A DNA stretch of 64,000 bases from Psilocybe cubensis (GCA_017499595.2 CM039001.1:1736001-1800000), one strand, 5' to 3'; shown: positions 16,173 through 17,841, counted from the stretch's first letter. Numbers and translations are program-made. Notes: a model not told the origin generated them from the sequence alone.

Positions 16173-16841
16173 TTACTGCTGCCCATTATTATACCTTGCC
16201 CTACTCTGTGCAAACAACTCTTCTTGGGCAGCAGCCAGCTCCTCTTCCGTCATTCCAGACTTTTCGAATTTGGAGACCTTTTTCTCTCGGTCCTGAAAGA
16301 AAGCAATTAGTAAGCTTCAATTGCGGAATAGGTATGTGTGAACCTTTTGCTGCTGCTTGTGATCTTTCAGCACGCTTTCAACTTCTGGTGCAAAAGTCGT
16401 GAATCCGAGACGCTACAATAGCAGTATGAGGCGACATTCCAGGAGACATGCAATTTGCTCGCACCGTCAAAGCAGTAATGATATGCTCAGGCGCTATTGT
16501 TTTCTTATTCTCCTGTTCACATATCTCGTTCGCCTCTGATGATATCAGATGAATGAATTCTGTACCACGATGTGAGAAACCAAGGGGGTCGTAAGCAATC
16601 CATCAATGTTCACCTACACAACACTCTATAACTAAATCTCGCGTCTCTTTCGCGCACACCACGTCGTTGGGCAGAAGTTCTGACGAAAATGATCGTAGGC
16701 GACAATTAACCTGTATGTACCCAAGAATGATTGATCCAACGTGAACTCACCAGCTATCATCTTGGCTACAGTAGCCTTTGGAAGAGACAGATCGTCATCA
16801 GTGGGTGCTCCACCTCCAGAATGTCCTTCTCTGTCGGACAT
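16173..16841 (-). CDS. NCB2: Negative cofactor 2 beta subunit (NC2-beta/Dr1), histone-fold
   Basis: DDDLSLPKATVAKMI...RDLVIECCV|EFIHLISSEANEICEQENKKTIAPEHII, ending QEELFAQSRARY. Confidence 0.95.
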
Positions 16842-16984
16842 ATTAGTCTCGAGGTTGGAGTTGGTAAAGAAGAAAAAGGGAGGGATGGGTTGGTCAACTT
16901 GAATGGAAGGGTTTTTGAAAGAAACATGGAGAGCCGTTGTTGGTGTCACTTTTAGAAGTCCGCACGTGTTCTCTTCCAACCACC
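16842..16984. promoter_or_regulatory. Compact bidirectional promoter shared by NC2-beta and SmF, containing CACGTG (16963-16968)
   Basis: The divergent start codons are only 143 bp apart. Confidence 0.7.
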
Positions 16985-17449
16985 ATGGCCTCTGTAAGTT
17001 TCGCGTCGTTCTGTTGGTCGATTTTCTCTCACTATGCTGCAAGGTCAACCCTGTCAATCCCAAACCCTTTTTGCAAGAGCTCACTGGGAAGCCCGTATAC
17101 GTACGACTAAAATGGGGGCTTGAATACAAAGGGTTCCTTGTTAGCACTGATGGGTACATGAATCTCCAGGTGATCGTCCCGGACATTGTCATCAGAGCGT
17201 CTGCTCATTTTCCCCAATAGCTTGCAAACACGGAAGAATATCAGGATGGAAAGTCAAATGGTGCTCTGGGCGAAGTCTTCATCCGGTATGTTTAATGCAC
17301 CACGAAGCTATAATCTATCCGCATTGACTCTCTTCTCAGGTGTAATAATGTTCTCTATATCATGAGTACATTTTCTTGCTCCCAAGGTCCAGGCTTATCA
17401 ACATGTATCTGTTTTTTACAGGGAGGCTCCTTCAGAATCGGCAGATTAG
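16985..17449 (+). CDS. SNRPF: Small nuclear ribonucleoprotein F (SmF)
   Basis: [55 protein letters not shown]...[23 protein letters not shown]. The last intron appears non-canonical (see findings). Confidence 0.95.
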
Positions 17450-17841
17450 GATAGCATTGCCGTTATAGAGTCACCCAACGTCAGTCACCGTCAAACTTGA
17501 TCGGCATGAGCGCACTCAGTGACGGTTTACCTGCAAGAAGGAAATATATGTGCTTCGTTTGTAATACTATGTATATCCAGCGTCGCCTATTGCGCAAAAA
17601 ATGGTGCTATCATTTAAAAAGGCCATTCATTTTGTCAAGACACATTCTTTCCTTTGGCTGCATGCACAGCCACAAAATAGTTCATGCGCCGCTTCAATTT
17701 TTTTCTTTCTGCGAGTCATTTTGACCTGTTTTCACCCATCATCACAACCTCCACTACAGTCTACCATCACTGCATTTACTTACTTGGTTCCTCTCCATCC
17801 CGAAACTATAAAGATCTACCGTCGAGTTATCTGTGCTCACA

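Follow-up and report, generated by a model that had tools for sequence, protein, structure and literature searches.

Does the last intron of a core spliceosomal gene in a mushroom really begin with AT and end with AC and, if so, which machinery removes it and why has it been kept? The question is raised by the gene for SmF (small nuclear ribonucleoprotein F) of Psilocybe cubensis, which lies on the plus strand of a 64,000-nucleotide stretch of DNA (GCA_017499595.2, CM039001.1:1736001-1800000), here called the window, with positions counted from its first letter. The fourth intron of this gene has AT at 17362-17363 and AC at 17418-17419; introns 1-3 are all GT-AG. A sequence-only reading of the window had proposed that the major spliceosome would have to remove this intron, and that it might be a feedback sensor of spliceosome capacity. 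Our analysis indicates that 17362-17419, the last of the four introns in SmF, is with good probability a genuine U2-type ("type II") AT-AC intron that is removed constitutively. Its ends are conserved in related fungi, the signals around them are U2-like, and the exact spliced junction is present in contigs of relatives that resemble complementary DNA (cDNA). The sensor idea fared less well.

Conservation of the AT and AC ends in related SmF genes

Metagenome contigs were scanned with a nine-protein SmF alignment as query, yielding 427 relatives, of which the best 80 loci were analysed. The exon-4 motif, which encodes CNNVLYI, was found on the plus strand in 72 of these best 80 loci, and in 34 of the 72 it was directly followed by AT[AG]AGT (ATAAGT or ATGAGT). 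Complete AT-start introns were recovered from 30 loci, all of which end in AC followed by AGR-GAR-GCN (Arg-Glu-Ala), and they represent 20 distinct sequences of 48-68 nucleotides (nt). Another three AT-start loci (L013, L056 and L068) run off the end of their contigs, and a single one, L010 (864-931), deviates at the 3' end. Among the 38 loci without an AT start, 35 come from more distant lineages and are intronless at this site, L001 and L002 are of Agaricomycete type but intron-free throughout, and the last one is L035, discussed below. The sequence-only reading had looked to AT...AC ends conserved across Agaricomycetes for its confirmation and to plain GT-AG introns in close relatives for its failure. 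AT was found in 34/34 Agaricomycete-like genomic loci and AC in 30/30 complete ones, so that the relatives gave the opposite of plain GT-AG at this position.

The agreement goes far beyond chance, since 20 further distinct introns, diverged in their interiors, have these ends too. The same recurrence rules out an assembly error, a pseudogene or a private mutation. That the window carries a sequencing or assembly error, or a decaying copy of the gene, has only the prior rarity of AT-AC introns in its favour, and we consider it negligible: the same two changes with respect to GT-AG occur independently in 30 metagenomic loci, 65 public protein models imply them as well, every exon is intact, and exons 1, 2, 3 and 5 match a public model exactly.

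The window and the 20 distinct relative sequences were then aligned (n=21). Within intron 4, A+1, T+2, A+4, G+5, T+6, A-2 and C-1 were invariant (21/21) and position +3 was A or G in all sequences, while the interior had diverged freely. At the 3' junction the four bases of AC/AG (the slash marks the splice boundary) were invariant in 21/21, and the third positions of the next three codons varied. Since a change from AGR to CGR would be synonymous, the invariance of the AG after AC suggests a constraint on the RNA, in which this AG may serve for early recognition of the 3' site. The remaining two Arg codons of the gene in the window are CGA and CGG. In addition, a branch-like CTGAC, TTGAC or CTTAC occurs in 18/20 relatives, its A lying 15-25 nt from the 3' end.

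As controls, introns 2 and 3 of the same genes were parsed by script in 24 distinct loci, the window included (L006, L047 and L056 were outside this set). Intron 2 was GT-AG in 24/24, and intron 3 was GT-AG in 19 and GC-AG in three, L008 and L013 being mis-parsed. None of the 46 control donors carried [AG]AGT at +3 to +6, against 21/21 intron-4 sequences, and this strong match, always present in intron 4 and never in its neighbours, fits a compensation for the bad +1 position.

Furthermore, the junction expected after splicing could be read in two intron-free, cDNA-like contigs of close relatives. L001 and L002 each matched SmF residues 1-80 in one tblastn segment (93-95% identity), and such single-segment matches imply that all four introns are missing from them. 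Both read TACAT[TC]/AGGGAGGC, translated as YIREAPPE followed by a stop, which is exactly the AT-AC junction. The exons of L002 are 88-92% identical at the DNA level to those of the genomic loci L025 and L026, whose intron runs ATGAGT...AC. The same correct ending, YIREAP, is found in public models from, for example, Suillus, Marasmius oreades and Paxillus involutus.

Structure of the SmF gene and boundaries of its fourth intron

Reading of the sequence and translation of pieces of 16700-17800 gave a five-exon SmF gene on the plus strand at 16985-17449, with the following features (all on the plus strand):

16985..16993, plus strand: exon 1, ATG GCC TCT (M-A-S); the joined model has no internal stop and, minus exon 4, equals the public protein P0003
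16994..17043, plus strand: intron 1, 50 nt, GTAAGT...AG
17044..17169, plus strand: exon 2, 42 codons, Sm1 region, translated
17170..17220, plus strand: intron 2, 51 nt, GTGATC...AG
17221..17285, plus strand: exon 3, ending with CG of an Arg codon
17286..17339, plus strand: intron 3, 54 nt, GTATGT...AG, phase 2
17340..17361, plus strand: exon 4, 22 nt, G plus CNNVLYI, ending TAT ATC
17362..17419, plus strand: intron 4, 58 nt, phase 0, ATGAGT...TTTTAC, homologous to the 20 distinct AT...AC introns of metagenomic SmF loci
17362..17367, plus strand: 5' splice site of intron 4, ATGAGT, the U2-type consensus with A for G at +1
17394..17402, plus strand: putative branch point within CTTAT / TCAAC, some 18-23 nt before the 3' end, proposed from reading the sequence
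17418..17421, plus strand: 3' junction tetranucleotide AC/AG; the last intron base is C 17419 and AG opens an Arg codon
17420..17449, plus strand: coding part of exon 5, REAPSESAD, with the stop TAG at 17447-17449

The identity of the gene is clear from exon 2. It is 100% identical to SmF models from Psilocybe cubensis and further Agaricales, which bear the name small nuclear ribonucleoprotein F and carry Pfam PF01423 (LSM/Sm domain). The CNNVLYI of exon 4 corresponds to the last strand of the Sm fold (Sm2 motif). From NPKPF onward, 65-69 of 73-75 residues agree with correctly spliced SmF models, and the REAP..E type of tail encoded by exon 5 is also found in such models.

The coordinates and bases given for the AT-AC intron by the sequence-only reading match the sequence exactly, its 58 nt are an ordinary size beside the 50, 51 and 54 nt of introns 1-3, and its excision restores the conserved SmF ending, giving a model of 83 amino acids (aa) when the coordinates are joined by script. 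Other details needed amendment. The tail produced by retention of the intron does contain Cys, as had been claimed, but is 30 aa long and not 31. An in-frame "GA...AG" parse that would give IM followed by EAPSESAD is really GA...GG (17365-17422), and the true GA(17365)...AG(17421) intron yields a different tail. Similarly, the statement that no GT donor sits at the junction holds for the boundary itself, but GTACAT occurs at 17366, 4 nt inside the intron. In the window the same mRNA would also result from boundaries shifted by -1 (CA..TA) or +1 (TG..CA), and by sequence reasoning AT-AC and its +1 shift (T[AG]..CA) are the only boundary placements that fit all relatives.

About 140 nt upstream of SmF lies a divergent neighbour gene on the minus strand (window about 16700-16841, ATG near 16841), whose N-terminus resembles a histone-fold protein of the NC2/Dr1 type and may encode one. 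This head-to-head arrangement is retained in several metagenomic relatives (L002, L008 and L025/L026).

Public protein models and alternative junctions

The footprint of the intron is also visible in public protein models. We collected 239 SmF proteins from databases, and 65 of them run from CNNVLYI into Ile-Ser or Met-Ser (YI-IS or YI-MS), which are the translations of ATA/ATC/ATT-AGT and ATG-AGT, respectively. A translation of AC/AGR-GAR in one of the three frames was present in 45 of the 48 read-through tails of at least 17 aa, where chance was estimated to give a few per cent. The read-through models come from Agaricales, Boletales, Polyporales, Russulales, Hymenochaetales, Thelephorales, Gomphales and Trechisporales, and further from Sebacinales (Serendipita) and Cantharellales (Tulasnella, reading MS...LY/REAKEGE); in Calocera viscosa (Dacrymycetes) the footprint was seen at the 5' end only.

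In the subset of the 120 best matches to exon 2, read-through was found in 51 models and the correct junction (YIRE..) in only eight; exon 4 was skipped in three, a shifted GT-AG junction (YI-IK) was used in three, the exon-4 motif was missing for other reasons in 48, and seven were of other kinds. The public Psilocybe cubensis model itself, P0003 (75 aa), joins exons 1-3 of the window to 17422 onward and so omits exon 4, and since no GT-AG intron exists at that junction this gene model is wrong. Exon 4 is likewise skipped (FIR-EAPSE..) by five more Agaricales models that fall into its 90% cluster or close to it. Models reading YI-IK-AP.. are P0063, P0073, P0090, P0154, P0208 and P0232 (Mycena, Amanita rubescens, Pyrrhoderma, Russula dissimulans and Tulasnella). 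Most automatic predictions were thus misled at this site, and gene finders for mushroom genomes should permit AT-AC introns.

These models bear on whether a different junction is used in P. cubensis, with GT(17366)...AG(17421) removed, or the intron retained to give the 30-aa tail, and the AT-AC intron a construct on paper. A GT and an AG (17420-17421) that together form a canonical intron are at hand, read-through public models are many, and Suillus decipiens P0191 ends in YI-MEAPPE. We nevertheless judge such a junction improbable. Both products lose the conserved Arg and the acidic tail of the correctly spliced models and cDNA-like contigs, the tail of the GT-AG product being out of register and without conservation; at +5, GTACAT does not have the consensus G; for ATAAGT relatives the corresponding GT leads to a frameshift where AGG follows AC (15/21); and the invariance of A+1 and C-1 would be left unexplained. 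The read-through models, in turn, come from predictors that disallow AT-AC and are not evidence of retention. The GT(17366)-AG(17421) parse was consequently rejected for its unconserved tail, the missing G at +5 and the unexplained invariance of A+1 and C-1. As a separate observation, the ending of P0191 corresponds to the IM parse, with both boundaries shifted by +3 (GA..GG).

Class of the intron and proposed mechanism of its removal

The intron has the features that define U2-type AT-AC introns: AT and AC ends, a good U2-type 5' splice site apart from +1, and neither a U12-type donor nor a U12-type branch consensus. By base-by-base comparison, the donor agrees with the U2 consensus at 5/6 positions. 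The U12 donor consensus is RTATCCTT, and AT[AG]AGT shares only its first two bases in 21/21 sequences. No TCCTTAAC-like U12 branch motif was found in the window. An Rfam scan of the 64-kb window gave no matches and, covering one window, says little on minor small nuclear RNAs (snRNAs). In this regard, the sequence-only reading had assumed a U2-type donor in a lineage without a minor spliceosome. The donor is indeed ATGAGT or ATAAGT throughout, and according to Larue et al. (PMC10639083) neither Ascomycota nor Basidiomycota have convincing minor introns; they describe a "complete absence" from Dikarya and the loss of most or all minor snRNAs. U2-type AT-AC II introns are defined by a 5' site that, except in the terminal dinucleotides, is a good match to U2 (Sheth et al. 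2006, PMC1557818). The U2-like donor, the branch-like motifs, the reported lack of minor introns in Dikarya and the fit to the AT-AC II definition together make removal by the major spliceosome most likely.

We propose that the major spliceosome would recognise the donor through its perfect match to the fungal consensus from +2 to +6 (T[AG]AGT), which would offset A+1, while the branch site and the pyrimidine tract would be of the usual kind. Ligation in the second step would take place after AC and not after the AG two bases downstream, since by the known rule for first and last intron nucleotides an A at the first position pairs productively with C, and not with G, at the last. In agreement with such pairing, the effect of a G1-to-A change is rescued by a change of the last G to C in yeast and human, "although less efficiently" (PMC1557818). 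The AT-AC state would then be entrenched, as changing one end alone would cripple the splicing of an essential gene. Major-spliceosome use, first-last pairing and entrenchment are all inferred here.

Several observations weigh against this interpretation. The spliced junction comes from two sources only, public protein models and the cDNA-like contigs of relatives; the contigs L001 and L002 are called cDNA-like solely for their missing introns, and L002 also holds the divergent neighbour gene without introns, a spliced state that probably comes from merged overlapping transcripts. L010 reads CAACAC/GGGGAG at its 3' end and is either AT-AC with Gly replacing Arg or else AT-CA. The Auriculariales-like L035 has no AT and, read canonically, contains a GC-AG intron whose position is moved 2 nt downstream. 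Among the long read-through tails the 3' signature is missing from 3/48. Where AGA-GAR follows AC (6/21 sequences), the frame is also kept by a GT-AG intron with both ends moved by +4, whose product YI-IK-AP.. matches six public models; AT-AC use is only presumed for those species. Moreover, TCCTTAC, which we take to be one base off the U12 branch consensus, lies 15-18 nt from the 3' end in 6/20 relatives (L012, L033, L058, L060, L077 and L078). Lastly, matches to minor-spliceosome RNAs have been reported in a basidiomycete yeast, Cutaneotrichosporon oleaginosum (PMC7072748).

The last two points, together with the AT-AC ends that are typical of U12 introns, are what would speak for a U12-type intron removed by the minor spliceosome. 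This possibility appears very remote to us, and it was rejected for the U2-like donor and the reported absence of minor introns from Dikarya: beyond its first two bases the donor departs from the U12 consensus in all 21 sequences, the window's own intron lacks TCCTTAC, and most or all minor snRNAs are reported lost from Dikarya (PMC10639083). As for L010, it is a single 1019-nt contig in which a sequencing error is possible, and Gly also stands at the same position in Tremella mesenterica P0226.

Age, origin and persistence of the AT-AC intron

The U2-type AT-AC intron is old, being present in essentially all Agaricomycete orders sampled and, to judge from the protein footprint, probably in Dacrymycetes. 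Its persistence is most likely due to entrenchment, which would explain the conservation because a return to GT-AG needs both ends to change and single intermediates should splice badly. The original fixation would have been eased by position, as the intron lies after the whole Sm fold and mis-splicing alters only a nine-residue tail.

A possible origin of the intron is suggested by the exception. L035 reads ATCAG/GCAGGT...TTACAG/AGAAGAC, with both boundaries 2 nt downstream of the AT-AC ones and the same kind of protein as product; its tail, REDKEPRS, resembles that of the Auriculariales model P0144. The region L035:1430-1830 is without intron 3, and two introns in it are best read as GC-AG, one starting GCGCGT after ..MNLQ and one starting GCAGGT inside the Arg codon after YI. 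The AT-AC intron may have originated when an older G[TC]-AG intron slid by 2 nt, an unproven hypothesis. In this model one 2-nt deletion would turn AG/GTAAGT into /ATAAGT, after which the old AG would give way to the AC lying 2 nt upstream of it, restoring the frame and preserving the mRNA exactly. The G[TC]-AG state persists in L035, and some Tremellomycete models hint at it. Among the Tremellomycete read-through models, those of Saitozyma (YIR-YV) and Vanrija (YIR-stop) fit an AG/GT donor and the variant of Cryptococcus amylolentus (YI-SIY) fits A/GT, while C. neoformans P0218 (YIR-NMT) and C. depauperatus P0117 (YIR-YK) fit neither. Because of these mixed Tremellomycete results the slide stays a hypothesis. 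The locus offers a clean case in which a rare pair of splice sites has stayed frozen throughout a fungal class, with the L035 lineage having apparently escaped by moving its boundaries 2 nt.

An unlikely role as feedback sensor of spliceosome capacity

The sequence-only reading had called the intron deliberately weak and suggested that it senses spliceosome capacity. The proposal would be that an inefficient AT-AC intron is kept so that SmF output tracks the capacity of the spliceosome or of Sm-ring assembly, as a homeostatic feedback. In a more specific form, AC/AG would be a two-part acceptor, with AG used for early recognition and AC ligated, and a slow second step would make the intron a class-wide homeostatic sensor of SmF, retained in the mushroom lineage for what we roughly assume to be several hundred million years. 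Autoregulation through splicing is reported for another Sm gene, human SNRPB. The location of the intron in a core spliceosomal gene, its maintenance across a whole fungal class, and the invariance of the AG after AC in 21/21 despite the synonymous AGR-to-CGR change, which indicates selection beyond the protein, are compatible with such a role, as is the description of AT-AC rescue as less efficient than GT-AG splicing (PMC1557818).

The alignment does not favour it. Only splice signals are conserved in the intron, and neither a retained-intron frame nor a stop codon nor an Sm-site-like motif is (the lengths, 48-68 nt, are multiples of three in 5/21); what would mark an autoregulatory intron, a conserved regulatory element or a regulated-retention or poison isoform, was not found. 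Retention after the whole Sm fold changes merely the nine-residue tail, the L035 lineage appears to have swapped the intron for GC-AG, and entrenchment accounts for the conservation equally well. We therefore regard a sensor function as unlikely, and doubt the two-part acceptor with a slow second step to the same degree; a sensor, if real, would be a new kind of spliceosome self-regulation.

Comparison with known systems

U2-type AT-AC introns are a known class, with 24 members in the roughly 610,000 introns of five model species (PMC1557818). Examples, in human SCN4A and SCN5A and in human and fly TAF2, resemble the SmF intron in their AT and AC termini with a U2-like 5' site, in their preservation between orthologues over long times and in their extreme rarity (PMC1557818). 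Unlike them, the SmF intron is found in Dikarya, which reportedly lack a minor spliceosome, lies in a core spliceosome gene, is 58 nt long and carries an invariant ACAG. Dependence on U2 has been demonstrated for SCN4A and SCN5A (PMC1557818), whereas for the SmF intron we infer it. U12-type AT-AC introns share the terminal dinucleotides but have another donor and branch consensus and other machinery, reported absent from Dikarya (PMC10639083). GC-AG introns, in which a non-consensus terminal base is offset by a better remainder of the 5' site (PMC1557818), are similar to the SmF intron in that respect; they keep G+1 and the AG acceptor, whereas both termini of the SmF intron are changed and must co-vary. 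In Arabidopsis, the U5 small nuclear ribonucleoprotein subunit DROL1 is needed specifically for AT-AC introns, according to a preprint.

Closest in taxon and class are the AT-AC introns noted in re-annotations of Agaricomycete genomes, where gene models likewise break when AT-AC is disallowed. Ganoderma lingzhi has 13 such introns (0.014% of splice sites), one of which was verified by reverse-transcription PCR and Sanger sequencing; its gene encodes a DNA polymerase delta zinc-finger domain and so is not SmF. The primer table does not mention SmF but includes another AT-AC gene, chr1g0010881, whose product is unstated and could be SmF (PMC11590231). The class is also mentioned for the long-read annotation of Coprinopsis cinerea (PMC12230235) and makes up 0.03% in SnowyOwl models (PMC4084796). 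The passages of these re-annotations that we examined neither name SmF nor report conservation across orders, and a search of the full-text literature gave generic counts of AT-AC introns in Agaricomycetes and no prior description of the SmF AT-AC intron or of its cross-order conservation, although supplementary gene lists may include it.

The system behind the sensor idea is SNRPB, a core Sm gene like SmF whose own splicing could set its level. SNRPB has a conserved alternative exon with a premature stop, to which nothing conserved in the SmF intron is comparable. What distinguishes the SmF intron within its known class is the host gene, class-wide conservation in a lineage reported to be without a minor spliceosome, and widespread mis-annotation. 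As a natural substrate with deep conservation, it lends itself to studies of how first and last intron nucleotides pair and how the major spliceosome chooses between AC and an AG 2 nt further on, in host organisms whose reported lack of a minor spliceosome leaves such studies unconfounded.

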